The notes beneath the pieces were generated by a model. The model was not told the origin of the DNA. It saw nothing but the letters and a program-made list of their open reading frames with translations, and did no database searches. Shown here piece after piece: positions 1-57,022 of a stretch of DNA of 64,000 nucleotides. The first letter of the stretch is position 1, and each line of letters starts with the position of its first letter. Source of the stretch: Narcine bancroftii (Eukaryota); the NCBI RefSeq assembly GCF_036971445.1, contig NC_091469.1, forward strand, positions 67,704,001 to 67,768,000, in the 5' to 3' direction. The position numbers were made by a program, and so were the translations under genes.

Positions 1-1615
1 AAATAATTTAAATGGGCATATGCTATTTATTAAGGATTGCATTGTCAGATGCAAAAAATGGATCATGAAACTGATTATCCAACTACCTCTAGACAGAGAT
101 ATAATTGTACATCAAAAATAGTGATTCACGTAAAAAGACCAAAAAAAAGTTGCAGTGTGTTTTTTCTTTCTTACCTTTTATTGCTTATGGGCTCTAAGTG
201 CATCCCTCATCAATAGTCATAGAACACCCCAGAAAGCCTGCAGATGAATCAAATTTCAATAAGAAATTCTAAGCTAGTTACAAATGCAGAAAGTAGCTTA
301 AGCCAGTGTGCGACGAGATGCATTTCAGCTATTAATTGATTCTTTTCCACTTTGGTCCTGTTTGTTCCATCTTTTATTCAGCTATTGTTTTCTCAATAAA
401 TTCCTATTAATGTTCTTTACTTATGTCTCACTTTTTAAAAAAAATAACTGAGCTCAGTACAATGAAAATTAGCTAACTGATTTAAAGCAGGAATATATTT
501 TTGATAGGTTTCTCAGCATCACTTGCCATTACTGGCCACTTGGCCCATTCACTTTTCCCATTAATAAATAAAACTCCTCAAATGAAATTAAAAGTAAACT
601 TCTTGAAAGTTAATTGTTTTTCCATTTTTTTTCAAACCTGCTTCACCAGTGTGCAAGGGGCTCCTGGACATCCTGTGAATGTTAGCAACATTAATTCCAG
701 TGGTCAGCAGAAATACAGCCCAACTGTTAATGCTCCATAAAATTGTAGGTGAAGGGTTCCTAATGCCTATACAAGAAACATGAGATGTTGCAGCTGCCCT
801 TTAATATTCCTACAAATACAAAACATTCTGCCAAGCATCACATAACATTTGCCCAGCCTCAAAAACCCTCACTAGAAATTCTACCTTTGATCTTAAAAAA
901 TTGAAAATCTTAACAAATTGTTTCAGCAAATATCAAACTTTGTCTTATGCAGTTTTTCTATAGCTGCTTATGGATCAGATCTATCCAATAGTTGTGCAAA
1001 GTAACATGTAACTGGATAAGGTAGGAACTACCGGGTACGTCAACAATAATTACAAACTATTAGTAAGGGGCATACAAAACCTCCTAAAACTCTCTCCAAA
1101 AGAAATGCACATGATACAGATTGAGAATAATCCTAAAATAGTTTTGTCAGTAACCTTTTGTTCTAGTAACTTTAAATTGCCTGAGATGATTCTTGGATTT
1201 TAAATACAAATAACTCAACAACATGGAGGGAAATAGTTTAAAGGAATTGTTTCCAAGAAAGGAAGAGAAAAAGAAATACTTTGGAAGAGAGTTAATTTTA
1301 AAGACTAAGACCCAGCTACCAAAGTAGAGAAATTGAAATTGGCGATTAGGAGGATCAGACATAAAAAGAACATCTAATTATAATAAAATCATGGCACAAG
1401 AGGAAGAAAAAACAACAGCGATAAAAACCAGATGATGCTTCCACAAAACTACATTAAGATGGAGAAAATAAAAATAAACATACCATTGGCTATCATTATT
1501 CCCAGCATTCATGGGATTATTGTCTTCTTAGCAAGGAATGGCTGAGTGGTGGCAAAAGCAAGTGAAGATTCATGAGGACAAAGACTGTCAGTGATGGAAT
1601 CAAGACCATAACAGT

Positions 1616-14280: not shown

Positions 14281-15560
14281 CTTTGTGATAGTCTTGCTGC
14301 ACTCTGCCTAATTTTAAAGAAAAAACAAAATGCCTCCGGGAAAGAGCCTGATGTCCTCAAACACCCGAGATGCCTCTTGTGAGCAGACTGCTCACCTCAT
14401 GACTGTTGCTCAATAAAGATAGTATTCACAAGCATGTTTCAGTTCTTGAGGAGCAAAGAAATGATTACACATTAACACCTGCCTGTGACACATGATTTGC
14501 TCTCCTACATTAGCAGAGGGGAGGCAGAAAGAGCACATCCTTGCCCAAGAATTGTACATGTGAACTTGTCCCTCTGCAAGAAGACACACAGCCCCTACAC
14601 TTCTTTACTGCAAAGCATATCAACCTCAGATTACAATGCTCTCTAGTAAAATGTATCCCAACTTTGGATTGTAGAGTGCTGAGGAGAAAGATGCCATCCA
14701 ATCCAAGTGCCTCTGGTAAGTAAATTCAGAACAAGCCAACATAATCTTAAACATTGGATCAAGACATGAAAGATCATCAGGTGGCAAATTGAAAATGTAT
14801 AATGGTCTCCCCAGATGTTAACAATGCTGACACAGCATAATTTTCATGATAATGAGCTAAGATGGATAAATAAAGTTGTGCTCGATTTCAGATGTGTTCT
14901 CAGTCTGCTAGTAGGGGCTAAGAACCCACGTTCTACACTAGAAACCTTTAGAAGTCATCAAAGAAGAAAAATATAACCAAGATCATTCTTCCTCACACAC
15001 TTATAACATACAAGAACATTCCATCAGAGGTGAGTTGAATGTTCAATTGGTAATACATTAAGAGGAAGGTGGACTGTATAAAATTGTCTATTCTTCTGAA
15101 CACTGATAATACTGAATGTCTGATTAACATTATTCTAGGAAACCATGCAACATCCCAAATGACCAACTTTCAAGAGCATATTGCTACATTACCATTCTTC
15201 TTCCATCCTGTGAAATATAAATGTATAAACTTTGAAAAAACAAGCAAAAATTCATTGTTGTACATTTTTTAGGGATACCTTGTATGACATGGTTAATACA
15301 TTCCAAACAAGTTCAGTGTTATGAAAAAGTGCACTGTTTGAAGCATTATTACAATGTACTTTACTGTAATACATTCTAACCCTATAATTATTTATTATTT
15401 TACCTAGAACTCTTAAGCAAACATGTGGATAAAATATTTAAAAGGGATATCTAAACTGAAAAATGACAAATATCTTTATTGGCAATAAGGGAACATTGTT
15501 TATTTAAGAAAATATTTGTCTGATGTAGTTTGCAATTCTTTAGTTCCAGCCCCCTCAATG

Positions 15561-15880
15561 ACTGCCCGCTCGGGACGGTGACTGACTGCTCAAGACGGTG
15601 ATGGTAAGTGCCCACTCGGGGTAGTAAGTGCCCACTTGGGATGGTGACAGTGTCCACCCAGGATGGTGTTTGCCTGCCTGGGACTATAACTGCCCACTCA
15701 CGGCCGTGACAGTCCATCAAGATGGGGACCAACCGCTCGGAATGGAAACTGCCTGGGAAAGTGACCAACTGCCTGGGACTATGAATGCCTGCTTGGGCCG
15801 GGTCTGATCATCCGGGATAGTGACCGTCTGCTTGAGACCGTGACCACCTGCTCGAGACGAAGACCAACCGCTTGGGATGA
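15561..15880. repeat. Degenerate ~20-bp GC-rich minisatellite
   Basis: Recurrent units resembling ACTGCCCRCTCGGGACGGTG within AT-rich flanks. Confidence 0.7.
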
Positions 15881-16217
15881 AGATATACACATTTGCCTTG
15901 AAAATAAATAAATCATTGACCATGTGTCATTTTGAATTGGCTGTAAATTATATGCTGAAAGAATGGCTAATCACCTGAAATCATACCAAAATAGGCACAA
16001 GGTCAATCAACTATGCCACTAATTTTACAAGATGCAAGGAGAAATAAAAATCTCTAATTGTACCTTCATCCTGGAGAAGAAATGCAGAAATTAAATTTTT
16101 ATCAGATTAAAGATAGAATGAAAGTGCATGGACCGACCTTGGAATGGGGACTGACTGTGTTATATCAAAACCTGCACTGTTCAAAACTGTATTATACACG
16201 GTATGCCTGTAGTTAGA

Positions 16218-16955
16218 TCAATTAAACAAATATTCATTTGTAGATTTCTGTTTTCCTTCTTCTTCTCCATCTAAAATATTGATGTTCTGATTCCACAACA
16301 GGCAATTTGCCAAAGATGTGCCAGATGTTGAGGCAGCAATGTCAATCTCTGGATCACTTTTTTTCCACAAAAACTTTTCATTCTTTTTCCAAAGAGAGCT
16401 ATCCCATTCTTTTTCCCTCCCTTTACGTTTCAAAGGTGCAGTTTCACTAAACCTTTCTGTCACTGAAAAATCTGTTAGTGCACTGACAAACTCTTCATTA
16501 CTTTTATTCAAAAAATCCCAAAAATCTCTAGGCTTAGTTTTTCTTTTTGGCACATGCCCAGAAGTTTTTTTTGGCTGTACGGTAAGGTTTCTCTTCCTGC
16601 CAAACAATGGATCCAGTATGGAGGTATCACCAAGCAGCTCTGTAATTAAGTCGGTTTTGAGTTGCGTTATTTCTTGGTTGTTATCTGACATGCACTTTGG
16701 CCCTTCCACTGGTGGACCTATCTCTTCGCGTTGTTGTTGCAGATTCACAGCACCTCTGGAGTTTGCCCCACTGCTGTCCAGTTTACTCTTTGAGAGTGAA
16801 GTCTCTGAAGGACTTGAACAACACATATGATCATCAACACCTTCTCCAACATTATGAACATATTTGTCAGGCATCATATTATAATTTTTTAATGAGCTGT
16901 CCTGACTTATAATTGTATTTTTGTGAACTAAATGATGTGTTTCAAAAACACAGAT
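16218..16955 (-). CDS. ERCC6L2: Open 3' part of the ERCC6L2 terminal exon
   Basis: 245 open codons to TGA at 16218-20 (includes ORF 16218..16877). Contains the ERCC6L2 C-terminal motifs LLGDTSILDPLF, PRDFWDFLNKSNEE..LTD and SLWKKNEKFLWKK. Confidence 0.8.
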   Translation of the reverse strand: MCVFETHHLVHKNTIISQDSSLKNYNMMPDKYVHNVGEGVDDHMCCSSPSETSLSKSKLDSSGANSRGAVNLQQQREEIGPPVEGPKCMSDNNQEITQLKTDLITELLGDTSILDPLFGRKRNLTVQPKKTSGHVPKRKTKPRDFWDFLNKSNEEFVSALTDFSVTERFSETAPLKRKGREKEWDSSLWKKNEKFLWKKSDPEIDIAASTSGTSLANCLLWNQNINILDGEEEGKQKSTNEYLFN

Positions 16956-17238
16956 CTATTTCCATCAGGTTCTTTTTGCTTAAACTATTTATTCTGCCAG
17001 CTGGTTCTCCACAAATAAAATAACTGACGTTTTTTCAGCCCTTCTGTCAGAACTACTTGTGGCCGCAAAGCCCTTTGAACTGTGTACAATGACACCATCC
17101 TCAATTTCAGACTTGGAAAGGCTAATTCAGCTCCAGATGCTGAGTCAGGTGGGAGTCGGTCAGCACTTCCAGCTGGTGCTCCAGGTGCTGCTTAGAGCCT
17201 GCTCAGCTAAGCCTTCCGCAGAGATATAGGAGCTCTTT
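16956..17238 (-). pseudogene. ERCC6L2: Eroded 5' part of the ERCC6L2 terminal exon
   Basis: Acceptor ttccattttaag|A at 17239-40. Reads KSSYISAEGLAEQALSST, then in a shifted frame EHQLEVLTDSHLTQHLEL, resembling human [32 protein letters not shown]. All three frames contain stops. Confidence 0.6.
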
Positions 17239-19528
17239 CTTAAAATGGAACATCATAAAATAAGTATTTCAATATCTGAAGAAAACCAGTATGAAGAAAA
17301 CCAGTAGAGTGGAAGTACAGTAAAGAACATTTTGCTAAGCAGAAGGAAACTGCCTACAATCGCTGAGCCTATCTTTTGCCTTCTTCCCCTTCATCTCCCA
17401 CAGTCCCCAACAAACCAGTTAAAGCTCTGAAGCACTAAGCTGACACCAGGCAATGGGATGATCAGCAGCACCATTCCTTCTATTACGAATGTTGATTAGT
17501 CTCTTACTGCTCAAGTGCTAGCCAAGTGTTGCTGAGTATTTGACTGGTACCAACTAAAAAATGATCAATTGCTTTGGGTTAGCGTATGGTAATGAAGACT
17601 ATCTTGATCCTTTCTGAACTGCTCAAAGTACTTGTTGATAGAATGTTTTCTGTCACTGCTGCCAGTTTAAATGGTTAGCTGAAAGGCAATTCAATGCTTT
17701 ACTAACCCGACATGCTGGAGTCATTGCAGGTTAGTTATCCCAACAGGTCAGAGGTCCACAAAAGTTTTTTTGTTAGAGACATGGTTTGGGGACAGGTGTG
17801 GAATTTACAGGGAAGAGAGAGTTGATTGGATGGGGAAGGAAAGTTACACAGTACACATTAATGAGTTTGTGGTATTTCTTCAATGTCTCATTTTCTCCAT
17901 CCTTTCTGTTATTCTATAATATGTGATCCTATACTAATCATGTTCTTCCCAATATAAAATAAAAAAACACATTTACATCTTGCCAATAATGTTGGGTTTT
18001 CTAGAGTCCCCAACCTGGAGGCCGAATCACTCATCTTAGCTTAAACTTCACTGCAGCTTTTAAATGTCTATTATTCTTGATCACAATACACATGAACAAT
18101 GAGAACGTAATGAAAAGCTTAGCTTTCACAATCAACAAGCCATTCAAACATTCACGTGGTTAATAATTCCAGTTGGAATGAAAATCCAACATATTGCAAT
18201 CATAGATAACCCAAAAAAGTAGTCTCCTACTAATTTAAATGGAAAATCTTCAGCAATGTGCAGCAGAACTTGTCTCTGCCTACATTTATGTTTATCTAAC
18301 CAGGATGTAGCAGATAGCTCTATTGCTAATTAGCATAGTTTCATAACAAAACATTAGACCACTACTAATACTTCCTCTCTTTTGATCTTAAACTTCCTCC
18401 CATCCTTTCATTATCATTCAGACATGGGATTCAGTACATTTTATTCAATGAGCAATGTGCAGAGTGTAAAATTTCCACCAGATATTCAATACTTTCCTAA
18501 TGTATCCCTTTGCTCTGGCAACAAAATCGCTGCAATAAAACAGTATGTTTTCCGTTGCTATTTCCAGTTCTACATGAAGGCATTATTTTCAGATCCATCA
18601 CTAATCCTATTTGCAAACTCCTTCTTTGATAGTGGGCAAAAAAAAGTGCTTCTTTGGAATGCTTATACAGCTGCATCACCAGGTCTTGAGCAGAGACCGC
18701 CAGTATCTGCAACCTAGCCTTCAGAACCTGTGTGGGCTGTGTGCATTGCATTATTCAGCACAACACCAATGAACAGCTGAACACAAACAAAAAAAACTGA
18801 CCATAACACATATGCGGCCTTTAGGTCCACACATGATTACAAATAAAGGCTTAATTGTCATGTTCCACATAATCAATTCATGCTTTGCCTTCACATTCAT
18901 CAGTGCTCAATTATCATGTGATGGCGAAGCCTGTCAAAACAAGACTTCTTGAATTAGTGATCCAGAGAGCGAGATGATGAAAAAGGGAGCCTGAAATTCT
19001 GTACAAATTTCCTTACAAAGACCAGATTCACAGAGGATGTGACACGACAATGTAATCAGAAATGACAGGAAATACAATGGTTTTTAGAGAAGTACTGGCC
19101 TGCCACTCAAAATGAAGCTTTGCTGCTCAGTCTACATTCCTAGCCTGGCTCTGCAGCTGTGACTGCCTTTGACAGGTCCTGCACTCTGACATCTTTACCA
19201 CTATGAAATGCTTTAACAACCTGAATAGAAACAAAATGGTCAGTGGAAGAATAGACTAAGTATTTCCAGTACACGTATTCTCCTGCTGTCCTACCGTTTG
19301 GCAAATACTTTAGGTCAGCATACCTATCGAGAATGGTCTGGACTAACAAGATCACATTACTAGTGCTCAATTTCTTTCTGGACTGTTGCAAGTACAAAAG
19401 AGCAGCTATGGTGTCATCTTTAGGTAGAAGTATCATATGACCATGCTAAGGGAAAATGAGTTCAGCTGCCTTTACAGAATGAAAGCAGGGCCTTTTGACC
19501 TTTGACCTCAGTCTTCTAGTTTACTCAC

Positions 19529-19599
19529 CTACAGATTCCTTTGGGTGCTTCCTTTATAAAGGTGCTGGTGCCAGCTGCTTGTTGGCCCTTCCCCTCTAT
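19529..19599 (-). CDS. ERCC6L2: Putative shortened penultimate ERCC6L2 exon
   Basis: Perfect donor AG|gtgagt at 19527-28. Encodes IEGKGQQAAGTSTFIKEAPKGIC(R), resembling human TTFIIGETPKGIRR. The only phase-0 acceptor downstream of the in-frame TAA (19666-68) is cttctccacag|ATA. The ancestral exon probably began near 19713. Confidence 0.55.
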
Positions 19600-21237
19600 C
19601 TGTGGAGAAGGATGCACAAGTGACAGGTGGGTTAAACTTCTGACCCTCATTTGTTTGGAGTTGCTTTAAGCATTTTTGAGGGGAACTAAGTACATGACCA
19701 GCTTCATAAAATACTCAAAACAAAAAAAATTAAAATAGTTTCAAGGATATGATCTTAAAATATTGCATAGAATTGACCCTGCTGCTAACTTCAGATACAG
19801 AAGAAGCTGTGTCAAACAAAAAAAAATTCCAAGCACCTCATTCACATCACTCAGCTCAGGTAAATTGGAAAATCTGAAATAACATACTTTTATTTAATTT
19901 TATTTAAAGTACTTCAAATCAAACACTGTTGCATTAGTTTGGACCTAACATACAGCACTTCTAAAAAAAACTTCAAATAATTAAAAAAATTAATGTAAAA
20001 TTTTAGTTTTTAAATAACTGTTGCATTTATTTTTTTTAATGATTGTTGAAGCATTATCTGGTCTGCACATTATACCTTTTGAGCCTTGCCATTTTGGGTC
20101 AGGGCAGCCAGTCAATACCAATTAGTCTAGAGAGGCAAACCTGAATTTACCACATAACTCTGTGGTGATTCTGGAAGGTTCTTACCACCAGCAAGTTCTG
20201 ATCTGATACATTTAGACATACACTTTCAAAATATACAAGTTAATCCAGCTTTAGCCAATTGAAATCTTGGTATGAGAACTTTTTTTTGTAAAGATGAGAG
20301 AGTACAGTTATATAGATAGAATGGAAAAGCTGGAATTGTTCATTTTAGAGACGAGGGCATATGACATTCAAGAACCAAAGAAAAACCTTTCAGGATCATG
20401 AAATATTAAAGACTTCTACATTGTTCAGCATATGAAACTAGGCACAGAGTAGATGGGTTCAAGGACGTTTCTGTGCTGTGGTATTCTATGGTTCTATAAT
20501 AATACAGAATATAGGTCAGCACATTAAAATCTGCAGGGAATGAGCTGATTAATAACCCCTTTAAGATGGTGATCTATCACTGCGTGTGAACCATGAATCC
20601 AGGTCCAAAGGCAGAGACCACACTAGGTACCGATAGCCATTATATTTAAGCATCCAAATCCAGAGTTAATGGATGTGTCATAGATTGATCACAAAATGGT
20701 GACAGAAATGCAGCCCTTTGCCTGCTCTGCTTGAATGCACCTTGTACAAATACTGGGCATGAGCATCATTGCCCTCATCTGTTGCCTCAACAATGCAATA
20801 AAAATGTAATATTACTAATGGTAATTAGGGATTAAAGTGTCCGTTCACTAAATTTTGGAGCAGGAAATAGAAATTCAAAGTAAGAAATACATGTGAAAAT
20901 TTGGCCACATTATTTCAGAAATCGAATGAATTCCTTACTGAATTTAGTTAGTTAATTTTATTAACACTACAAATTTGTGATTGACATGTTGATTGTCAGA
21001 AAGAGATTTGCCAAGATAGTGTAATATCTGAAGGCGGTATTATTTAATGTCAAGGACACACGGAAATAAACCAGAACAATAAATATAATTTGAGGAACCT
21101 GAAGTACTCATCTATTATCTGGATTACAGATCAGAAATAAATGATACACAGATATGCGCTCTAAATAAAAAGTATTTTTTGAGGGCTTCAGTTTTATATT
21201 AATTAATATTTTCAATTCCTTCTCCAGGATAACTTAC

Positions 21238-21392
21238 CTGACTTGCATGGAAGGCAATGTTTGCAGGTATCTGGGAATACTGTTTTAGTTCAAATACATC
21301 ACGAATTGCAGTATGGGTCAGTTGGTTTTCAGCTTTGCTGGATCCAACCACACGCTGATTTGAATGAATGAAACCCACTTCTTGTACATTAC
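21238..21392 (-). CDS. ERCC6L2: ERCC6L2 exon encoding the VIGSSK motif
   Basis: tttactag|GT ... CAG|gtaagt; 155 nt, phase 1/0. Encodes [52 protein letters not shown] (human [46 protein letters not shown]). Confidence 0.95.
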
Positions 21393-21639
21393 CTAGTAAA
21401 TGAAGTATTAAATATATCATCAACAATCCCTGCTGCTTTAAAATAATTTGTTGAAGTGTCCTTCAGCAAATTATGTGATTTATCTTATTTTCCACATATC
21501 TAATTCTGATTTGCTCCTCTTGCTTTCAACAAGTTGGGCGAAATTCAAAATAATTTTACCACTGATAAAGGTTTTAAAGGTTTAAAATGCACCAAAGTTC
21601 TCCACAGTTGATTAAACTTGAGCAGAAGAACTTTCGGCA

Positions 21640-22105
21640 ACAAGGTATCTCTCGATTCCCTGGATAACTGTCCTAGAACGCAAGTCCCTGCAGTAGATAG
21701 TAAAGACTGCTATAAGGAGATTACTGGGGTCTCTCTCCCTGCCACGATAGACATTTATAATGGCTGTTGTTTGCGGAAAGCCATAAATCTTGTGAAGGAC
21801 TCCACACCCCTCCCCTCCCCCTCTCAATCCATTCTCCCTCCTGCCATCCAGGAAGAGGTACCAAAGTGTTCAGGCCTTCATGACCAGATGGCGAAAGATA
21901 TTTTCTGCACAAGTCGTGAGGCTTCTGAACACCAGGGACACAGCATATGTAACATAATATTTATGTCATATGTTATTTATAAAAAGTTTCTGATGAAATT
22001 TAGCCATGTAAATAACCAGCTCCACGGACCGGAGAAATGCTATTTCATTTTCACTGTACATTGTAGTGGTTATGGTATGAACAACAAATAAACATGACTT
22101 GACTT
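21640..22105 (+). mobile_element. Rex1/Babar-type LINE 3' fragment
   Basis: EITGVSLPATIDIYNGCCLRKAINLVKDS; tail aataaacatgacttgactt. Confidence 0.7.
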
Positions 22106-23354
22106 AACATCTGAACCTATAACCTACCATCTTTGATCAATGCAGACTTCTTGTGTTTGTGGCTTTTCTCATCAAGATACACTGTTATTTTGGGCAGGGG
22201 GCACGAATTGTGCAAAATCCGTCTCTTTGGAAAAATTATTTTAAAAATCCTTGTAAATTATCCTATTTTGATTTAGACCTGGCCTGACTAATCACCTAAA
22301 CCGGTTATAATTCGAAGTTCTCAACAATTCTAATTAAGGCACAACTTTAAATTTTGAAGTAAAAAATTGAAAAGGAAAAGATGAAGCTTCAATCAAATTC
22401 ACTACAATAAATCTCTTGGTGCATTCACAACACAACTGGAACAAGCTTGATACTGGAGGAAAAGATTTTGGTTCTATGCTTGATGCTTTAAAGGCTGCAT
22501 ATCCCTGAAGTGGGCATCACAAGAATAATGAATAATTTTGATTTAGCAGTATCTACACATTTGGAACGAGTTTTCAATCTCAAAGATTGTCAGGATGCCT
22601 CCAAGAATTGAAGATTTACTTCGAGACAACTCTGCAAACAGATGGTAAAAATGGCTTCTTGACTGGACAGAATGGATTGAGGCCAGCAGGGGTCATGTCC
22701 TGGAATATGTCCCAACAAAATCAGTACCCTATTCGGGTGTGCCTTGTCATTTTCTAAGTTTATGACCTGGGGTTTATCGAGATGTTGGGGGCATTTTTGC
22801 TGTTTGTTGCTCCACAGTAGTTTCCTTTATAAAAAAATCAAATGTGAAATACAACTTTGATTTGACTGATTGTTGCATCGGTCAAAACAAACAAAAAAAA
22901 CAAGGAAGACATGATATACATTTGTGGCATGCAATGTACAGTATGTGCCAAGTGTTCTTTAGCCCCTTAATTTGACACTCATAGGAAGAGGGCCTCATAA
23001 ATGTAGCACCAGGACCAATGTCTGTGCTTGCTTACCTGTGCTATGCTTGTCTGAGCTTACATTCCATTTACAACCAAAAATCAGGCTGGCAGTACACCAA
23101 TATCTACCCGCAAAACATGCTATTATTCTAACATCAACAGTTGGAAGTACTTGCCTATTTCTTGGGTCTTCACATTTAATTCCCTCTAGTCTAGTGCCAG
23201 TGCCAAGTAGCATCAGCTTCATCCTAAAGTTGTTCTTGTGAAATATGAGTGTAACATTGATCTGCTATGTACTCACATCCCTCAGACACAAAACTTTTGG
23301 AATACACAGACACATCCTGACCCTTCACTCTTTAATTGAAAGATCTGTAGTTAC

Positions 23355-24510
23355 CCAACATGTTGTCCATTGATGCCAACTGTTTACTGTTAGTTTGCCT
23401 CCAATTCCTGTACCCAGGTACAGCTCCATCTTTGGCAATTCCACTCCACCTCTTGTGAGATCTAAACGGAATTTTCTTGCACTTTTGCTTGCTGTTATTT
23501 CTACTGATCCCATTGTTTACATTTAGTCGGGACTGCTTAGTGGCAATGTCATCTTCAGAAGATGAAAATTCCTCCATGTTGTATTGCGCCGTCCTTTTTT
23601 GAAGTATAGCTTGAGCATTACTGTTTCCTCTGCCCGTTTCGGCTCTATGATCAAATTGATTCGATGTTATGTCTGGTGACTCTGCAAACATTTCAACATC
23701 ATCTGACTCATCACTGATGCTGTCTGTCCATTTCGGCTGTGCTTTCAGTTTGGCAACTACGATCAAGGGTTTTTCTTTTGTTATCTTGGAAGAATCACCA
23801 ACAATGCATGGAACTGCACCAATACATCGTGAAGTTTTAGAAGATAAAAAAGATTTTTCTTTACTGCACACATGTGCAAAGTTTTCATCATTTGAATCCT
23901 CTGAATCTGTCGATAGGAAGCTGACATTAGATTTCTTCCTAAGAAACGAATTTTTCTTTTGTCCCAATACATATGAAGTACTGATCATGTTTCTCTCATT
24001 ACTGTTAGTGGCTTCCTTGTCAAGTGCTAATTTGGCTTTTCCCTTGGATTCAATGAATGAGCTACAGTTCCGACTGTACTTTGACTGATTAGCATGTCCA
24101 TAATCCCTTTTTATTGGTTGAACATCTGAATGGATATCTGGGACCAGATGACCAGACACGTCCACAGCAAAACCCAAGCTTGTGCTTACTCCTGTGCTCT
24201 GCTTCTCTAATAATTCACCATCAGAACTGCAGTCACTTTCACTGGATAACTCACCACTGCTTGCTTTTCTGTCAAAAAATTTGGAAAGCCCACATTGGAC
24301 TAAAGTGAGCTGTCCACCAGTATCCAGATGGTGATTGATTTCCACTGGATCTGCTTCACTATTCTGTTTTGTCATGCTTGAAGGCTCCGTTTCACTGTCA
24401 CTACTGAAGTCAAAAGATTGTTGTAGATTTCTTAAGGTTGACCTTTTTCCTTTGTTAAGTTGCATCAACAAGTCTAGGTTCTCCTCTTCCATATTTGCTG
24501 TGTCTGTGGT
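23355..24510 (-). CDS. ERCC6L2: ERCC6L2 large Ser/acidic low-complexity exon
   Basis: Lies within ORF 23332..24537. Acceptor ctctttaatgttcag|ACC and donor TTGG|gtaact; 1156 nt, phase 0/1, consistent with both neighbouring exons. Ends ...ASMDNML-G. Confidence 0.9.
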
Positions 24511-24539
24511 CTGAACATTAAAGAGAGAAACAAACATTT

Positions 24540-25470
24540 ACAGATGCACCAAATAATATGTATATCAGAACACTCAGCAGATCTGGCAATATCTGTGCAA
24601 AGAGAAACAATGTTAATAGTTCAATATTAATGGAAAAGCAGCTCAGAAATGCATAGATGAAGTTTATAAATAAACTCCGTAGGTTTTTCACAGAGAATAG
24701 TCTCTCTAAGACTTTCTCATCCACTCTTCCCTCTCCACCCATCCTTTCACCCCCTTAAACACTTCCTGCTGTAACTGCAGAAAGTGTGAAGCTTGTCCCA
24801 CATCTCTTCCTTCTCCTTCATCCACCAGGTTTATAAAATTAACTTCCAGGTGAGGCAAAGCATTATACGCGTATTATCCAACCTAAGTTCCTGCATTCAA
24901 TGAACACTGTCACCTCATCTACATTGGTGACACAAACACAGACTGAGTGACCACTTCGCTAAATATCTGAAAGTTTGTGGCTCTAAACCTGAACTTCCTG
25001 TAGCCAACCACTGGAACTCACCCAACATTTCCTACAATGACATGTCTGCTCTTGACTTCATCCATTGTTGGGATGAGGCCAAAAGTAAACTTGAAGAACA
25101 ACACATCATTTTCCTCCTTGATACCCTTAAATCTAATAGCATGAGCATGGATTTTTAAAAAAAATTAGGTAATCCCTCACCTGACTCCACTGTTTCAATC
25201 TCTTCTTTACCTACACCAATAAATAAAATCCCCCCTCTCTTCCTAATAGTTTCTCCTTCAACTTGTCTCTCCACCTTTCACATCTTCAGTCCAATCACCT
25301 TTGGCCCTCTCTCCAGCTTCTTTTACAAACATAATATCATCACCTTCTCTCTAGTCTTGATAAAGTGTCCAGACACGAAACCTTCACTGACCATTTCCAT
25401 CCATGAATGTTCTCTGACCTGCTGAGTTTCTCCAGCAATTTATCTGCTCATGATTCAAGCATTTGCCTGT
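24540..25470 (+). mobile_element. Penelope-like element fragment (GIY-YIG C-terminus and terminal repeat)
   Basis: C..C..C, FQVRQ, IYIGDT, PVANHWNS...DMSAL...HCWDEAKSKLEEQHIIFLLDTLKSNSMSMDF. Hammerhead-like motif at 25357-25381; ends ctgacctgctgagtttctccagca. Confidence 0.85.
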
Positions 25471-30660: not shown

Positions 30661-31231
30661 AATATCTGCAGTATTTACTTGGCATAATGGTTGTAAGAAT
30701 TCAATGTGATCTGTGAAAGCAACAGCATGCAGCACGAAGCGGCAACCTTACTTTTCCATCTACGGAGTTAACAATGTTAGCACCCAGAAAATCTATAACG
30801 TTTCTGCTGAGCTTTCATTGTCATTTATCATAGCACAGTACAATGGACTAAAAGAATTGCCTTCCAGTGTCTGAAAAACCTCCTGTTCTAGCAGAAATTC
30901 TACACAGGTATCATAACCATTATAAAATGCCCAGTGCAGAGGGGTGTAACCATGATTGTCTGAAACTGTGGAAGCAATATCCATCGAGTATGCAGCTTGA
31001 AGAAGGGCTCCAAGCACTCCTACATGTCCACAGGCTGCTGCCAAATGCAGAGATGTGCTGCCCTTGCAGTCCCGAATTAAAGAGTTGGCATTGTGTTGAA
31101 TTTTCGACGCACTCTTCATGACCAGTAACTGCCCCTCTGTGCAATGCTGTTGGATCCCATTTGTCTTTGGCATCTACATTTGCTCCCTTATTAATAAGTG
31201 AGTACACACAATCTGTATGTCCATTCAAAAC
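30661..31231 (-). pseudogene. ANKRD28: Processed pseudogene fragment of PP6 ankyrin-repeat subunit A
   Basis: Intronless and frameshifted: VLNGHTDCVYSLINKGANVDAKDKW..TALHRGAVTGHEECVE / SLHLAAACGHVGVLGALLQAA...DNHGYTPLHWAFYNGYDTCVEFLLEQEVFQTLEGNSFSPLYCAMINDNE / LHAVAFTDHIEFLQ. Closely matches recalled ANKRD28. Confidence 0.9.
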
Positions 31232-32370
31232 AAAACAAAAAAAACTTGGTTGTAGGAGGGGCATGATTGGCAGCTCAATATTACAGGATTCCATTGTTTT
31301 TGGCTTTATAGAACTGGGGGGTTAAAAGGTGGAGGAGTTGCATTGCTTGTTGGAGAAAACATTACAGCAGTGCTATGGCAGGATAGATTGGAGGTCTCAT
31401 CCAGTGAGGCTATTTGGGTGGAATTGAGGAATAGGGAAGGCATGAAAACACTAATGGGAATGTATTTATAGACCACCTAAAGGGCTGAGGAAATTAGAGG
31501 AGCAAATTTATAAGGAGGTAGCATATATGCGTAATAAACACAAGGTGGAGATTATAGATTTTAAACTTTCCACACTCTTGCCCAGTAGTTCTAGGCCCCA
31601 CTTTAATTTTTCAAAAAAATGTACGCCAAAACATATATTCAAAAGAAGTTTTAATTAAATCATTTACTGCAACTGTATTTCAATGCAACTGAAGTCGGGA
31701 ATACACTGGAACATATATTTGATATTCAACTACTATTTCAATGTCAACCATCTCAAACACACATTCAACAATTGTTGTCACTTCAGTGGGAACCTTGCCC
31801 TTGCCGCTGGCTGCAGATATTTTTTGATTCGAGGGACTAATTTTGTTAGTTTCAACCTTAAATCTCCACGTTTTGTAATTTCCAGTCAGTTTCTCTTAGC
31901 TTGTAGCAAATCACTAATAGCACTGAAGCCACATTCTACTAAATAAGATGATGGAAAATGTATCAATAGTTGCCTTGCTAAAGTAGTTCAGTTTGGGTAT
32001 TTCTTTTCGATCTCGTTACACAGGCACATTATGATTCCTTTCACTTTGAACAGAGTTTCACAGATTCATCATGTTGCAACTCAATTAACTCCTCTTGGTA
32101 TTGCACTGGAACTTCAGATAATTCCACCAGCAATGGCTGAGTTAACCAAGAGGGAAAATCCATTGCCTTTAAATCACAAAATCTATCATTGAAGTCAGTA
32201 ACTAACATTTTCAAATAGTTAACAATGACGTTTGTAGCAGCATTAGTTACCTCACACTTATTTACCCAATAGAATTGACTGAAATTTCTTGCAGAAATAT
32301 TCCTTTAGCATAATTCTAGAAGTCCCATGAATCCAAATATCTTTGTTTTTGCATCAACGAGCGTCATATT

Positions 32371-35300
32371 AGGGGCATGGCATGATGGCGTAGGGAAAAG
32401 AGGTGGAGAAACACCTTCCCCAGCAGAACTACTCAAAACCCATTTTACAACTTTTTATAAAATTTTTTAATCCGTTGATATTATTGTTGAAGAGTCCTAA
32501 TCTGCAGCTATGAGGAAAATCAAGGCTCAAATGGTGAAAAAAACAGCAATTAAACAGCTTGGAACTGTGGAAGAAACTCAGCCTACCATACAAATGGAAC
32601 CTCCACCTCAGCCCAGGCCACAATGATCGTCTATGGGTAGGTCATATAGCACACCGGTGCCGATCTTGCGTACCGCCATGCAAGATGGTGGTGGTGACAA
32701 ACAACGATCCTCTCCTGAACAAGAAGATCAACCGCGTATGCACGCTACACCCAAACTGGCCCAGTCTGCGGGGGGACATGACTTAACTCAGCCCAGTGAC
32801 TCTGGGCGGGGGGGGAGTCCGCACCCACAGTCGGGCAGCCCAATCTCCGTGGTGATGGAGGAGGAAGAGGAGGACATTGCTGGATTAGAAAAAGAGGAGG
32901 AACAACTTTTGGAAGTAGAAGAAGGCCTGAACTGAGAAAAACTTTTAAGCTTAAATCAAACCCAGTGTATTCTAATCCTGCTTTATCTGATATATCAAAC
33001 AAATGGAGTATCTGGCTGTGCAGATGAGCCAGGGATTCTCAGTGGTCAAGGAGCAATTTAATGAGATGAAAGGTGCAATGTCTGACATGAAAGGCAAAAT
33101 ATTACTATTAAAATGGATGTTAATAAGTGCTTGAGTTGTGGATAAGGTTCAAGATAATTTTAAAAAAGATAGAAGAGGCATTTCTTGATTGAAAAGATGA
33201 TGTGGAGCAATGTAAAGAAAAAATGGAGCAGATGGAAGATTCGTTCACAGTTTAGGAACTTCAAAGGAGTGATTTACTGAAGAAGATTGACGTATTGGAG
33301 AATCAGAGTCGGAGAAATAATGCTAAGATTGTGGGTCTTCTGGAAGATTTTGAAGGTTCGGATCCAGTTCAATTTTTTTGCAAGTGGATTCCCGAGGTTC
33401 TAGAAATAACTTATTTTCCAGAAGACTTGGAACTGGACAGGCCTCAACGAGCGATTAGAAGGAAACCACTTCCAGGTCAAGCGCCATAATCAGTTCTGAT
33501 TCGATGCTTGCATTATCAGGATCGAGAGATGATTTTGAGACTTGACGTGCAGAATGCCAGACGTAATCAGGGCCCTTTGATTGTTAAGAATAATAGAGTA
33601 TTCTTTGATGCAGATTTGAGCCAAGCTGTTATTAAGTCTTAAAGAATTTAATTTGGCTAAAGCTGTTTTGTGGAAGAAGGGTTATAAGTTTGCCTTTCAT
33701 TACCCTGCTGTGTTAAAAGTTTTTTATGGGAATTATCAATCTCAATTTTTTGATAATGATCATGAAGCTCTTACTTTTGATAATTCCTTGCCTGTTAATA
33801 AGCAGTGTCAAGATCAGTTTACTCAACAACTTGTGTCGGTCCTGAAAGGAAAGAATGGAAAATGAGAGATGGAAATTCATCAGTTGATTGATATTGGTCT
33901 TGATGCTGATCAGGTTAACCATGATTTGGAAGCAGCTTAATCGTACTTGACTTGATTATATTATTTTTTGCTGTTTATTCTGTTCGGGGGGGGGGGGGGG
34001 GGGAGTATGGAGGGAGGTGGTCCAACTGCAATTTCTTCCGAAGTCGTCGGCCACTTTGTGGCATTTGTCATTCCCGTGTAATTGATGGGGGTACTACACT
34101 TATATTGTTGTAGTTTCTTTTTTGGGGGGGGGAGCTTTTTTTCTTTTTCATTTTTTTATAGGGGTCTGACTGTTCTTTCTTTCTTTGAGGAGTTCTTTGT
34201 TATGAGCCATGGAAGGTGCTTTGCCACTGTGGGGTGTGAAAATAGCTTGTTATAGCCAACTTAAATTTTGCTACTTTTAATGTTAATGGGCTCAATAATC
34301 TGATCAAGAGAAAGAGGGTATTAGCGTATATTAAAAAAATGAAAGTTGACATTGCATTTTTGCAAGAGACTCATCTAACTGAAAAAGAACATCAAAAGTT
34401 GAAAAGAGATTGGGTTGGGCATGTTATTAGCTTCTTCCTTTAATTCCAAGGCAAGGGGTGTTCCTATTTTAATTCATAAAAAGTTATCTTTTACATTGTA
34501 TTCAGTTTCTGAAGCTGTTGATTGTTAATTGTAGAATTTTTTCAGAAGCTTGGACGTTAATGAATATTTATGCTCCCAGTGTGGATGATGAATGATTTAT
34601 GGTGGATGCTTTTTTTAAATTTAAATCAGGCTTAAGATAAGGTATTGGTTGGAGGTGGCTTTAATTGTTGTCTGGAACCATTGTTGGATAAATCTCCAAA
34701 ATAGGTAGGTAAAGCGAAGATGACTAAGCAATTAATGACAGTAATGAAGGATTTGAATTTGGTACAGATTTGGAGAAAGTTAAACCTGACCGAGAAGGAT
34801 TTCTCTTTTTATTCATCCAGGCATAATTCTTATTCGAGAATAGATATATTTTTAGTGTCAGCGCAATTGCAAGGAAGAAATTTCAAGGTTGAATATAAAT
34901 GTAGGATTTTGTCTGATCATTCATTGTTATTAATTTCTTGTACTGGTCCTGAGGATGTAGAGAATGTGAATCGATGAAGATTTAACCCGATGCTGTTGAA
35001 AAATCCTGACTTTATTAAGTTTTTGAGAGATCATATACAGTAATTTTTGAAAATAACTGTGGGTTCGGTTGATAATAAATTTGTTTTGTGGAATGAATTG
35101 AAATCTTATTTGAGGGGACAGATTATTTGTTATACAGCTAGAAATAAAAAAACATTTGGCTCAGGTGAATGATTTAGAGAAGGAGATAAGAGATTTTGGA
35201 GAAAGACGTTCAGCAAGATGCGACGGAAATTAAAAAAAGTTTATTTAACTAAGTTAAAATTAAGGTATAATTCTTTACAAACTTAAGTTTGAGAAATTAT

Positions 35301-38300
35301 TGCAGAGAACTAAACAACGCTATTATGAATTAGGTGAGCGTGCTCATAAAGAGTTGATGTGGCAAATGAAGACTGAACAGGATTCCAGGATAATAAATGC
35401 TATTAGACGGGATATGTTGATTACTTATAAACCCCAAGAAATTAATGATGAATTTCGTTCATTTTGTGAGAAGTTGTATGCTTCTTAAGTATTGGAAAAT
35501 GCCAAAATTGACACCTTTTTGACTGATTTAGCTTTACCATCTTTAAAAGATGCAGAGGTTAGGGATTTAGATGCATTTTTTTTTATTGTTGTGGAGGTTA
35601 AAGAAGCACTAAAGGCAATGCCCAGTGGGAAATCCCCAGGAAAAGATGGTTTTACTTCAGAATTTCAAGATTTGTTACTTCCTTCGTTGATGGAGGTTTT
35701 GAAACAGGCTACAGAGAGTGGTTCTTTTCCAGATTCCTTTTTTAGAGCATTGATTACAGTTATTCCTAAGAAGGATAGGGATCTGCTGAAAGTGGGATAC
35801 TATAGACTGATTTCTTTATTAAATATAGATTATAAAGTTGTTGCCAAGGTTCTGGCTAATAGATTAGCTAAATATTTACTGGATTTGATTCATGTGGATC
35901 AAGCTGGTTTTATTAAAAATCAATATTCTGCATATAATATTGTAAAATTGATTTCTTTAATTAATGTTTCTCAGGGGCAATCCGGCCAACCTATGGTAAT
36001 TGCTTTCGATGCTGAGAAGGCCTTAGATAGAGCGGAATGGGTATTTTTTTTGTTTAAAGTGTTGGAGAAATTTAAATTAGGGCCACTTTTTATTGGCTAG
36101 GTAAAGACTTTATATAAAAATCCATCGGCTAGAGTGGTGACAAATGGACAAGTATCTCCTTTGTTTGTATTATCTACATCGACTAGACAGGGTTGTCCTC
36201 TGTCGTCAGCTCTCTGCATTGGTGAAAGTGTAGCCAACCACTACAAAGAAGCACACAAACACAGTGTGGCAGGTTAAGCTCACTGTTTTATTAGGGCTGG
36301 AAAGGCTGCTTTTATACTGTTCAAGTTCCTACCGTTTTTTGCTGATTGACTGAGTCATCCATATGAATAACAATAGTGGGCGGGAATAACCATGCATATG
36401 AATGCTATTCTTTCCTAGCCTGTTTCTACTGAGTTAGCTGGGCAGCTTGGCCAACACCATTTTAGGGCTGTTGGTCTGATGTTGCCCCAGCTTCTACCGC
36501 CGGTTCGTTGTCCTGGGAGTCACTTTAGTGATATCTGTCCACGTCTGCTGCTGCGCGATGTGGCGGCCCGATCTCCGCAATTGAGGGCCGCCACGATCCC
36601 CCTCCAGAACCAGCGTTACAGTCTATAGTGTCCGTAGGTATAGTCCCCAAAGCCTTTTGTGGTCTGCCTCTGCATCAAGGTGTTGGTGTCTCCACGGGTT
36701 CTGTGGGCAGGTTTGAGTTTATCTTTAGTGAAGACCTTTGGTTTACCACCAATGTCCAGCCCAAAGGTGGCTCTGTTGTTCCAGATGACTTGAAAGGGAC
36801 CTTTGTATGGCTTCTGCAGTGAACGGTGGAGTCCTCTGCATACAAAGACGTACTCACAGTCCTTGAGTTGTTTGGGGATGTTTGGCTTGGCTTGTCCATG
36901 TCTGGAGGGTGGGATCGGAGCCAGTTTACCGACCTTCAAGCGCAGCCTCTCCAGGAAGGTGGTGGTCTCCTCCTGCTGTCCTCTGGCCTGTGGAATGAAA
37001 TCCCCAGGAACTGTGAGTGGGGCTCTGTAAACGAGTTCAGCGGAGGATGTGTGGAGGTCTTCTTTCGGTGCTGTTCGGATGCCCAGTAGTGCCCATGGTA
37101 ACTCATCCATCCAGTTGGGGCCCTTGAGTATGTTCAGGAGGGCGGTCTTGAGGTGCCTGTGGAAATGCTCCACCATGCTGTTGGCTTGCGGGTGGTATGG
37201 CGTCGTATGGTGTAGCTGAGTGCCCCACAGGTTGGCAATGTCGGTCAACAGCTGGAGGTGAACTGTGCGCCTTGGTCAGAAATTATGTGCTGTGGAAGTC
37301 CAAATCTTGCAATCCAGGATGAGAGGAGTGCTTTGGCACAAGACCTGGTGGATGTGTCAGCCAGGGGGATTGCTTCTGGTGAAGCGGTCGACAAATGTGA
37401 ACAGGTAGCGGAAACCCTGAGAGACTGGCAAGGGTCCCACTATGTCCACGTGAATGTGGTCAAACTTGTGTTCCATTGGCTCGAAAGGCTGTGGGGGGAC
37501 CTTGGTGTGTCGCTGCACTTTGGCTGTTTGGCACTGCATACACGCCTTGGCCCACCCCCAAACTTGTTTCTGCAATCCATGCCAAATGTATTTGCTGGCC
37601 AACAGCCGGACCGTAGTCCTGATGGATGGGTGTCCCAGCCCGTGGATGGAGTCAAACACTCATCGCCTCCATGCCGTTGGGACAATAGATCGAACCTGCC
37701 CAGTGCCCATGTCGCACAGGAAGGTAGTAGTACCTGTGCCGACTGGAACATCCTGAAGTCGAAGGCCTGTGACAGTGGTCCTGTACTGCGGGATCTCGTC
37801 ATCCTGCTGCTGTGCCTCTGCCAGTGCTGTGAAGTCCAGACCGTTGAACAGGGAGTGGATACTGTGTCTTGACAAGGCGTCTGTGACCACATTCTTTGCC
37901 CGAGATGTGCTTGACGTTGGTGGTGTACCCCGAGATGTAAGGCTAGTGTCTCTGTTGGCGGGCTGACCAAGGATTGGAGATTTTAGCCAGGGCAAAAGTC
38001 AGTTGTTTGTGGTCCGTGAAAGCCCTTCCCTCGAGAAAGTATCGGAAGTGGCGGATGGCTAAGTACAGTGCCAGCAGCTCTCTTTAGTTCAGGGGGCCAG
38101 AGGTGTTTGCTGAAGAAGGCTAGTGGGTACCAACTTCCTTCTATCTGTTGCTCCAAGACACCACCAATCACTGTTCCCGAGGCATCGACTGTGAGGGCTG
38201 TGGGTACATCTGGTCTGGGGTGGGTCAGGAGTGCAGCTTTGGCCGGGGCTTCTTTAGTTTCCACAAACACACATGTGGATTCGTCGTTCCAGGTCAGTTC

Positions 38301-41300
38301 CTTCTCCTTGCCAGACATCATGATGAACAGAGGGCGCATCACTCGAGCAGCTGCTGGGACAAACTTGCTATAAAAGTTTATCTTCCCCACGAACTCCTGG
38401 AGACCTTTGGTTGTACTGGGCTTCGGGAAGCTGCGAATAGCCTCTACCTTGTTGGGTAGTGTTGTGGCCCTGTCCTTTGTAATCCTGTGGCCCAGGAAGT
38501 CGATGGTATTCAGGCCAAACTGGAATTTGGCCAGGTTGATGGTGAGGCCGAACTCCTACAGACAACTACAGAGATTTCGAAGGTGCTGAAGGTGTACCTA
38601 TCGCGTTCTACTTGCCACGAGGATATTGTCGAGGTAGACGAAAGTGCCATCCAGGTCTCAGCCTACTGCGTTCATCAGTCACTGGAATGTCTGTGCCACA
38701 TTTTTGAGCCCGAAAGGCATCCTCAGGAACTTGAACAGCCCAAATGGAGTGATGATGACCAACTTAGGGATGTCAACAGGGTGCTCCATGATCTGGTGAT
38801 ATCCTCGCACGAGGTCCACTTTTGAGAATATTGTTGCCCTGTGCAGGTTTGCCGCAAAATCCTGGATGAGTGGTACAGCGTAATGGTCCAGGGTAGTGGC
38901 TTCATTGAGCCGGCGATAATCGCCACATGGTCTCCAGCCCTCAGTTGCTTTAGGCACCATGTGCAGGGGTGAGGCCCATGGGCTGTCTGACCGTCGAACA
39001 ACACCCAACTCCGTGAGCTTGCAGAACTCCTCCTTAGCCAATCTGAACTTCTCCCGGGGAAGTCATCTTGCCCTTGCGTGGAGAGGTGGGCCCTTGGTCA
39101 GGATATGATGTCTGACGCCGTGTTGAGGCATCTTCGCTGTGAACTCATCCTCCAAGCGGTGGACGGAGTCCAGGTGCATTGCCAGAAACCTAGCGCCCCT
39201 CAGTGCGATGGTCTTGGTGTGGACGAGTCGCTTACCCTTAAGGTCCACTAGGAGCCTGTGGGTTCGCAGGAAATCCGCTCCAAGGAGTGGTTGTTCCACT
39301 GCGGCCAGTGTGAACTCCCACAAGAAGTGACTGCCCCGAACAGCAGCTCGGCCCTATGAGTGCCATAGGTCTGTATACTGCTGTTGTGGGCAGTCCTCAA
39401 CGTGGGTTAAGCTAGTCTACGCCTAGAGTCCAACCCTATCTGGGGTATCACGCTGACCTCTGTTCCTGTATCCACCAGGAAGCATTTGCCGGACATGCGA
39501 TCCCAGACATACAGGAGGCTCTCTTGGTGGCCAGTCATCATGGCCATCAGCAACGGCTGGCCTTGTCACCTCCCTGGAACCCAGAGGGGAACTGGCATCG
39601 GCAGGCCTCGGTGCCCCATGTCCAGTGGTAGAAGCACCAACTGTCGCTGGACTCGTTCCTGCCTCTCGTCTGCTGTTCCTGCTCCGGTCTGATTGTGGGA
39701 CTTCTTTACAAGCCCCATGGTAGCCGAGCACTTCTGTTTCTGTTTCCACAGAACTTCAGCCCGTGCTGCAACTTTCTGGGGGGTTGGTGAAATCTGCATC
39801 TGCCAGGAGCAGTTGGATGTCTTCAGGCATCTGTTCCAGGAATGCCTGCTCGAACATGATGCCATGTTCATCTCCCAGGAGGGCCAGCATTTCGTTGATG
39901 AGTGCTGATGGGGGATCTGTCTCCAAGTCCATCCAGGTGGAGCAAACGTGCTCCTTGCTCTCACCATGAAAGTCCGAATGTCTCGGTTAATAGCTCTTTG
40001 AAGGCAGTGTAAGTGCCTTCCGATGGTGGCCTGTGGATAAAGTTGTCCACTCTGTCTGCAGTCTGTGGATCGAGGGCACTGACCACATGGTGATGCCCCG
40101 GATCTGGAACGAAGACTCAGCCTGGTCAAACTGTCCAGAAGGTCAGAAGCTTCAGGCCGACTGTGCTAACTACTGCTTCATTCTCCATCGCTAGGTTTAG
40201 ATTCCTTCTAAACTGTCAGGTTCACCAATTGTAGCCAAACACTATACACACACACAGGTGTGGCAGGTTAAACTCACTATTTTGTTAGGACTGGAAAGGC
40301 TGCTTTTATACTGTTCAAGTTCCCGCCATTTTTGCTGATTGACCGAGTCAGCCATATGAATAACAATAACGGGCAGGAACATCCATGCATTTGAATGCCC
40401 TTCTTCCCCACCCTGTTTCTGCTGTTAGCTGGGCAGCAATGACCAATGCCATTAGGGTTGTTGGTCTGATGCTGCCCCAGCTTCTACCCCTGCCGGTTCT
40501 TTGTCCTGGAAGTCGCCTATTGCCAGCCCGATCTCCGCAATTGCAGGGCCTCCACAATAGAAACTTTGGTTCAATTGATTAGACAAGATGGTAATATTAA
40601 AGGGTATTAAGGTGAACGAAGAGGAGTATAAAATAAATTTATTTGCAGATGATGTTTTGATATATTTAACACAGCCTATGCAATCTTTGGGGAATCTACA
40701 TGCGAGACTGGAACAGTATGGTGAATTGTCAGTTTATAACGTTAATTGGGATAAGAGTGAAATAATGCCTTTAGGGGCTGTAGATTATTCATCTTGCAAG
40801 CATCTTGCAAAATTTAAGTGGTCTGATCGAATCAAGTATTTGGGAATTATAATAGTTGATAATTATCATTTATTTGAATTGAATGGTTTGCCTTTATTGT
40901 CTTAAAATTAAGTGATTTAAATCAGTGGAAAGATTTACCTATAACCTTGATAGGGCAAGTAAACTGTGTAAAAATTAATATCTTTCCCTGTATACGATAT
41001 CTTTTTCAGTCTATTCCATGTAGAATCCCCCCAAATTTATTTTTAGATACTTGAATGCTTTGGTGTGGATCTTTTTTATTGAAAGGTAAAATGGCAAGAG
41101 TGTCGTTGCAAAAATTATCTTGGAAATATGCTTTAGGGGGATTGCAATTTCTTCATTTTCAGCATTATTATGAATTGGCACAATTGAAATTTATTAATAG
41201 AATGTTTGAAGTGGATAAACCTTTGCTTTGGGCTAAGATTGAATTGTCCCAGATTAGTGAACAAAGAACAGATCATTTTATTTATAAATGGAATCCTCAG

Positions 41301-56078: not shown

Positions 56079-56104
56079 ACTCTGTTCCCCACCCCCCTGC
56101 CAAA

Positions 56105-57022
56105 CTAGTTTAAACCTTCCCCCACAGCTCTAGCAAATCTGCTTGCCAGCACATTGGTCCCCCTCCAGTTCAAGTGGAGTCCGTCCCTTTTGTACAGGTC
56201 TGACCTTCCCCAGAAGAGATCCCAATGATCCAGCAATCTTATCCCTTGCCCCCGCACCATCTCTTTAGCCACGCATTCATCCTCCACATTCTCCTATTTC
56301 TACCCTCACTAGCGCGTGGCACCAGCAGCAATCCAGAGATTACTACCTTGGAGGTCTTGTTTTTTAACTTCCTACCTAATTCCACATAATCCTGTTTCAG
56401 GACCTCATCCCCACTTCTAGCTAAGTAATTGTCCCCACATGGACCACGACTTCTGGCTGTTCTTCTTCTCCTTGCAGAATGCTATGAACTCGATTAGAGA
56501 TATCCCTGACCCTGGCACCAGGGAGGCAACATACCAACCTGGATCCCCGATCTCGTCCCACAAACCTTCTATCTGTCCCTCTGACTAACGAGTCCCCAAC
56601 TACAAGTATCCTGTTCTTATCCCTCTTTCCCTTCTGAACCTCAGGGGCAGCCCCCATGCCAGAGACCTGACCCCTACAACTGTTCCCCCCAGCAGTATCC
56701 AATGCAGAATACATATTGCTGAGTGGCACTTCCACAGGGATACTCTGCACTGGCACTCTCCCTCCTTTCCTCACAGTCACCCAATTCCCTGACTCCTGCC
56801 TTCTAGGGGTGACTGTTTCTCTGTAACTCTTCTCTATCACTGCCTCTGCTTCCCTTATGATCCTCAGTTCATCCAACTCAGCTCAAGCTCCCTAACACGG
56901 TCACTCATTATATGCAATTGGATGCACCTTTTGCAGGTGTAGTCATCAGAAACAGCTGTGTTGTATCTGACTTCCCACATCCTACAATTGGAGCACTTAA
57001 CTGCCCCAACTGACTCCATTTC
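56105..57022 (-). pseudogene. CR1 ORF1 (zinc finger, coiled coil, SGNH esterase), frameshifted
   Basis: VKCSNCRMWEV...YTCKRC; ILVVGDSLVRG, CCLPGARVRDI, VVVHVGT, DGLHLN. Confidence 0.9.

Follow-up and report, generated by a model that had tools for sequence, protein, structure and literature searches.

Splicing past a decayed HEBO module in ERCC6L2 of the electric ray Narcine bancroftii, probably the final stage of a relaxation of constraint that began in the batoid ancestor

In humans, ERCC6L2 is a bone-marrow-failure gene, and the C-terminal half of its product has, to our knowledge, been little dissected so far. The HEBO domain is described as two subdomains with a variable hinge (PMC4886357). 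In mouse, MRI/CYREN is predicted by AlphaFold3 to bind HEBO via T1213, F1214, I1215, I1223, and Y1263. In that study, mutations on the MRI side abolish the ERCC6L2-MRI interaction, and Ku binding requires MRI (10.1101/2025.11.28.691009). The interface is an AlphaFold3 model, and its mutational backing lies solely on the MRI side. A human fragment of residues 1053-1247 that includes the VIGS motif is reported to form DNA complexes, and fragments 1053-1247 and 1248-1561 each reach centromeres (PMC12003248). CtIP binding and condensates have been assigned to parts of the ERCC6L2 C-terminal half (PMC12527916).

The window analyzed here is a stretch of 64,000 nucleotides from the genome of Narcine bancroftii, and it contains ERCC6L2 on the minus strand, to which the features below belong unless another strand is given. 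A sequence-only reading of this DNA had already named the gene, and the name is borne out by an upstream exon that is 100% identical to a Narcine RefSeq protein. In protein comparison, the tail of the terminal exon matches ERCC6L2 of cartilaginous fishes, and this tail is single copy in the genome, as the one match among 31 candidates was the window itself. The SNF2 ATPase and helicase C domains are present (PF00176, 216 bits; PF00271, 87 bits in a Pfam scan), and the ATPase is 88% identical to shark references. A large internal exon for the disordered middle region (23355..24511) is covered by RNA-like contigs of runs X6 and X8 and is 100% identical to Narcine RefSeq. The exon for HEBO subdomain 1 (21238..21392), which carries VIGSSK and is bounded by contig joints, is intact, with 81% identity to shark references over 49 residues; its PF14773 score of 16.6 bits is below the cut-off of 21, as is that of the sevengill shark. 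Compared with the vertebrate ERCC6L2/Hebo long isoform, Narcine keeps the SNF2 ATPase, HEBO-1, and the tail motifs (PMC4886357). It differs in having neither the hinge nor the PF25806 helices and in the degenerate state of its beta-hairpin.

We propose, with a probability of roughly 85%, that splicing of Narcine ERCC6L2 joins 19529 to a new acceptor at 16812 with the frame intact, which removes a decayed 142-codon module and keeps the tail, and that this step likely completes a relaxation of constraint on the module that started in the common ancestor of rays and skates.

The stretch from 17238 to the stop codon at 16218 follows an intact AG (17240-17239), the old acceptor, and measures 1021 nt, that is, one base plus 340 codons, just as the sequence-only reading had counted. 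Read in the frame that the phase-2 donor upstream imposes, it has seven internal stops, at 17162, 17147, 17129, 16991, 16982, 16967, and 16958. They fall where two clusters had been seen (17130-17162 and ~16956-16991), at 17162-17129 and 16991-16958. From 16955 to 16218, 245 codons are open and contain LLGDTSILD, DFWDFLN, and SLWKKNEKFLWKK. A frameshift-aware alignment of the terminal exon with the sawfish, stingray, and sevengill shark proteins places four frame changes, at ~17183 (one that had been suspected from the letters), ~17124, ~17003-17027, and ~16884-16890, and a single stop in the ancestral frame, at 16944. Since the last frame change lies at ~16884-16890, the first ~24 of the 245 open codons are outside the ancestral frame; the frame open over 16955-~16885 is not the homologous one, and the open sequence that is conserved begins at ~16884. 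The damage, which had been placed in the first ~280 nt, thus continues past 16956 to this frame change and the stop at 16944.

All five disruptions lie inside the 426 nt that are now skipped (16813..17238) and none in the 595 retained nt (P ~0.013 for five of five under a uniform model over 1021 nt). The skipped part, corresponding to three predicted RHH_ERCC6L2 helices and a linker, is 60% identical to sawfish over 93 codons and 52% over 46 codons across the frameshifts, and is therefore homologous to outgroup coding sequence. The retained 16812-16360 is 79% identical to sawfish over 151 aligned codons, with no frameshift or stop.

Four RNA-like runs from a single study (X5-X8), none of them recorded as RNA, were analyzed as contigs over 14500-24700, the RNA origin of X6 and X8 being taken from their spliced contigs. 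In these two of the four runs, contigs of 4520 and 4558 nt cross three GT-AG introns. At the donors proposed earlier for a junction check, they join the exon ending at 21238 to 19599 and the donor at 19529 to the acceptor at 16812. The bin 16887-17227 has zero depth in both. Of the words of 16100-17300, a share of 0.57 occurs in each of X6, X7, and X8, where 0.59 is expected if the RNA comprises only the part below 16812. X7, for which ~75% of the run was covered, yields no contig at the junction region, and its word share fits a transcript that lacks the skipped part.

The shift from 17238 to 16812 removes 426 nt, exactly 142 codons, and keeps the frame. The new acceptor AG (16813..16814; …tgtgttgttcaag followed by T) is in phase 2, and the AG/T junction restores a Ser codon in frame. 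The joined exons give the open frame ...KEAPKGIC-S-PSETSLSK..., which is identical to the C-terminus of RefSeq isoform X1 (XP_069785380.1, 1385 aa). Thus, the splice from 19529 to 16812 is already annotated and is in itself an ordinary event; the RefSeq entry is an automatic model that carries no remark on a lost module, and it may rest on the same data as the RNA-like runs. Pyrimidines occupy 9 of the 16 positions before the new acceptor, compared with 11 of 16 before the old one and 4-6 of 16 before the four sites that the sequence-only reading had offered. That reading was right to expect a new acceptor and a product that loses the module and retains the tail, as the spliced contigs of X6 and X8 do. 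The AG in use is at 16814-16813 rather than before 16955, 16905, 16901, or 16896. The tail it had counted as 245 codons is open and bears the motifs, but only its last 197 codons are used. The coding part of the terminal exon in use (16218..16812), which is seen in the contigs and is 79% identical to sawfish, starts at 16812 with one base followed by 197 codons and the stop, and the LLGDTSILD, DFWD, and SLWK motifs are present in the spliced product.

The penultimate exon has also been cut back. Its ancestral 5' part (19600..19715, with an approximate 5' limit), which corresponds to ~38 codons of the HEBO hinge, carries a 1-nt frameshift at ~19627 and is now intron. The newer acceptor at 19599 is strong, with 13 of 16 pyrimidines. 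The shortened exon of 71 nt (19529..19599), defined by the joints 19599/21238 and 16812/19529, encodes a degenerate beta-hairpin with TSTFIK instead of TTFLIG. This shortening, the presence of the splice in RefSeq, and a decay common to seven of seven batoid proteins are points beyond what had been read from the letters.

It is very improbable that the main product is still spliced to the old site at 17238, ending in ...STSWKC* (1213 aa), with the tail as a recently released relic, an outcome that the sequence-only reading had considered. The old AG is intact, the Narcine tail evolves somewhat faster, and in X5 a contig end at 17240, a weak piece of support, fits the donor exon in nine of ten letters, in a run that also covers the skipped stretch. 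However, X5 carries clearly intronic contigs at similar depth and so includes pre-mRNA or DNA, from which its cover of the skipped stretch may come. X6 and X8 show solely the 16812 junction, and a relic tail does not agree with zero disruptions in 595 nt as against five in 426 nt. A truncated or pseudogenized ERCC6L2 is contradicted by a tail that is present in the transcript and undisrupted. Translation of the tail as a separate 219-aa protein from the ATG at 16877, another route suggested earlier, can scarcely be upheld. The ATG and its reading frame exist, but the ATG falls within the intron that is removed in X6 and X8, and a search of proteins of 134-429 aa gave, from 226 candidates, a single match that is a teleost-like fragment; no ray protein made up of the tail by itself was found. 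Assembly error, too, is an unlikely source of the damage, and that the indels and stops are such errors is hardly credible. Independent cover of 17097-17238 is deduced from bin depth alone. Against error, 0.99 of the sampled words are present in four DNA runs, which are possibly the assembly's own source. A contig from another sample matches 16844-17096 with no differences and no gaps, spanning two of the four frameshifts and one stop cluster, and the transcripts skip exactly the damaged stretch.

A different question is whether inclusion of the tail depends on tissue, with some tissues using alternative last exons to make mainly tail-less forms. The 16812 splice could still be used in the other tissues, and we regard such tissue dependence as unlikely without being far-fetched. 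In X5, the contig that carries the 19599/21238 joint has a depth of 80.8, and a loose end at 19528 has a unique match in an exon preceded by AG at G000:C1:67661079 (-), ~62 kb downstream. This exon would give a tail-less ...ICRS* form, which is absent among the four RefSeq isoforms of Narcine seen. RefSeq lists tail-less ERCC6L2 isoforms for Narcine, Pristis, Rhinoraja, and Hemitrygon; in the window, Narcine isoforms use alternative last exons at 210..237 (isoform X3, tail-less, ending in ...ICR-LSGVFYDY*) and 43314 (isoform X4, a short form of 740 aa with the ATPase alone). On the other hand, the X5 data come from one run and cover ~75% of it, contig depth is unable to rank isoforms, and the alternative exons differ among species, as splicing noise would.

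The Narcine exon belongs to a wider pattern. Comparison with other rays and sharks had been proposed for this gene, and it finds the decay in seven of seven batoids with the tail motifs kept. For this comparison, 32 database matches were reduced to one per species and combined with a batoid set gathered separately, for an alignment of 22 proteins from 7 batoids, 8 sharks, 1 chimaera, 5 ray-finned fishes, and 1 mammal, in which the relatives of Narcine are RefSeq protein models. The second HEBO subdomain, for which Pfam gives the fold name ribbon-helix-helix (RHH_ERCC6L2, PF25806), is degenerate in all seven batoid proteins and intact in all eight shark proteins. PF25806 was matched in none of six batoid proteins scanned (Mobula birostris was left out) and in three of three non-batoid proteins. 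No second genomic copy of the subdomain was found in a profile search of the genome, where the control likewise gave no match. HEBO-2 of batoids is 44-58% identical to shark references, that of sharks 77-90%; for the tail motifs the figures are 71-84% and 70-87%, respectively. The hinge is reduced to 3 residues in seven of seven batoids versus 38-42 residues in sharks and the chimaera. From the first helix, all seven batoids are also missing six residues, among them a Phe that the 15 other proteins all have. In the last helix, five batoids have other residues in place of the conserved Phe-Tyr, and in two it is deleted. The skate Rhinoraja is without ~41 further residues, and Narcine is without all 142.

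Branch lengths were obtained on a fixed tree of 20 proteins (two teleosts omitted) whose topology was set by hand, with Narcine placed with Rhinoraja. On this tree, the batoid stem branch measures 0.411 for HEBO-2, 0.054 for the ATPase, 0.072 for HEBO-1, 0.038 for the tail motifs, and 0.096 for the tail linker. Other values make the pattern less clear-cut. HEBO-1, too, has a high batoid/shark root-to-tip ratio, 3.8, computed on 49 columns and with a small shark distance. The Narcine tail motifs are 71% identical to shark references versus 78-84% in other rays, and the Narcine tip branch is 0.175 for the tail motifs versus 0.051 for the ATPase. In the chimaera Callorhinchus milii, HEBO-2 is partly decayed as well (54% identity, tip 0.54, with an equally long tip for the tail linker), the Tyr is replaced by His, and PF25806 scores 44 bits versus 67 in shark. 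This is possibly an independent relaxation.

The sevengill shark region was modeled with AlphaFold2 from 20 sequences, giving a mean pLDDT of 53.6, with 74-93 over the helices and less than 50 for residues 11-101. The modeled module is a beta-hairpin followed by three main helices. Since the exon junction sits at the start of helix 1, Narcine keeps the degenerate hairpin and drops the helices. The sequence-only reading had correctly placed the damage in the conserved helical segment that follows VIGSSK. In a fold search with this model (mean pLDDT 53.6) against solved structures, the best match reached Z 3.3 with an rmsd of 3.0 over 57 aligned residues. In a separate look at solved structures, no ERCC6L2 chain was found among the 60 of 80 entries listed.

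The predicted MRI contacts of mouse ERCC6L2 fall on exactly the module that has decayed in rays (10.1101/2025.11.28.691009). Their spacing of 0, +1, +2, +10, and +50 lands exactly on T, F, I, I, and Y in elephant, and batoids have S, T, L/F, I/V, and R/S/absent at these positions. The contact Phe is Thr in seven of seven batoids and Phe in 13 of the 15 others. The contact Tyr is absent in seven of seven batoids and is found in 14 of the 15 other proteins. Tempering this, rays retain hydrophobic residues at two of the five positions. Unlike in the mouse ERCC6L2-MRI-KU system, then, rays have Thr for Phe and have lost the Tyr, and in Narcine the helices are not encoded.

Because the skipped piece is degenerate in each of the ray and skate proteins compared and its mouse counterpart is the predicted dock of MRI/CYREN, rays and skates would likely have lost or rewired the ERCC6L2-MRI/CYREN link, if the mouse model applies to them. 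The functional side of this argument rests on the mouse prediction and MRI-side mutagenesis. A decay of the predicted MRI-binding module across batoids was not found in the literature searched, which was the main full text of open-licence papers. A broader and more tentative possibility, to which we give somewhat less than even odds, is that rays and skates abandoned the ERCC6L2-MRI/CYREN-Ku bridge for staggered breaks, and possibly CYREN too, and kept the ATPase, VIGSSK, and the C-terminal motifs. They would then be a natural separation-of-function lineage in which the tail has an MRI-independent role. Such roles for the retained HEBO-1 and tail parts are plausible because of the findings on DNA, centromeres, CtIP, and condensates (PMC12003248, PMC12527916).

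A loss of CYREN itself was approached through the Narcine genome, in searches whose blank results, obtained with no positive control, do not count as a sign of loss. The PF15325 profile gave no candidates in the genome, in a search that had no positive control (no shark CYREN sequence). In mammals, CYREN adjoins WDR91, and the search took in a presumed neighborhood of WDR91, caldesmon, and TMEM140 as well as presumed CYREN motifs, whose patterns matched at chance level. The presumed central motif, as a pattern, had 9 matches versus 6 in the control, none of them exon-like, and the presumed C-terminal motif had 4 versus 26 in the control, none encoding the motif. The TMEM140 family had no matches in the genome. 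In the inspected part of the output for 600 kb beside a WDR91-like and two caldesmon-like loci, a search run with no positive control, no convincing CYREN motif was seen. At G000:C23:68726000-68860000, there is no CYREN-like motif between the end of a gene we take to be WDR91-like (~68754430) and the first coding exon recognizable after it, which is presumably MICAL-like (68857800).

The shared states suggest how the present arrangement may have come about. In the batoid stem, HEBO-2 would have lost constraint, an acceptor shift would have dropped ~38 hinge residues, six residues of helix 1 would have been deleted, and the conserved Phe and Tyr would have been replaced. Most rays would still translate the degenerate stretch, as an in-frame linker or spacer, and the Rhinoraja lineage would have deleted ~41 more residues. 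In Narcine, a latent AG within a Ser codon may have become an acceptor. Since the skip is a multiple of three, frameshifts would then have been free to accumulate in the new intron. The reverse order, in which a first frameshift was rescued by a pre-existing minor acceptor, is also possible and would look the same here. The resulting Narcine protein likely keeps the ATPase, the VIGSSK DNA-binding region, and the tail; on the mouse model, its binding of MRI/CYREN through HEBO-2, and with it that of Ku, would be lost. Intronization, or the sliding of a 3' splice site into a coding exon, is a known mechanism. As in intronization, a former exon became intron via a latent in-frame AG and then decayed. 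Unlike in general intronization, this took place twice, in consecutive exons, and removed a domain that is otherwise kept from sharks to mammals, and the old acceptor is intact.

The locus presents graded stages of domain loss, namely in-frame decay, deletion, and removal by a splice shift. One HEBO subdomain is dropped while the flanking subdomain and the tail motifs are kept, which marks them as independently selected modules, and the retained tail motifs point to a function of their own. If MRI/CYREN docks on the dropped module, as the mouse prediction has it, rays would show whether end joining can do without its ERCC6L2-MRI-Ku arm and whether CYREN went the same way.

The surroundings of the gene show some further features. 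The start of the 3' UTR is covered at 15973..16217, where the lower limit is a contig end and not the transcript end (X8 reaches 15973, X6 16014). RNA-like contigs of all four runs extend below the stop codon within 14500-16000, where they overlap in part a repeat at 15450-15900, and AATAAA signals lie downstream of the stop at 15504, 15480, and 15396. Within an ERCC6L2 intron, 30793-31321 (-) holds disrupted intronless frames, which we take to be ankyrin-repeat-like and to resemble a processed pseudogene. Decayed frames, presumably LTR-retrotransposon-like and LINE-like by their motifs, lie in the long introns at 36600-40200 (-), 53200-56900 (-), 34700-36100 (+), and 40500-41800 (+).
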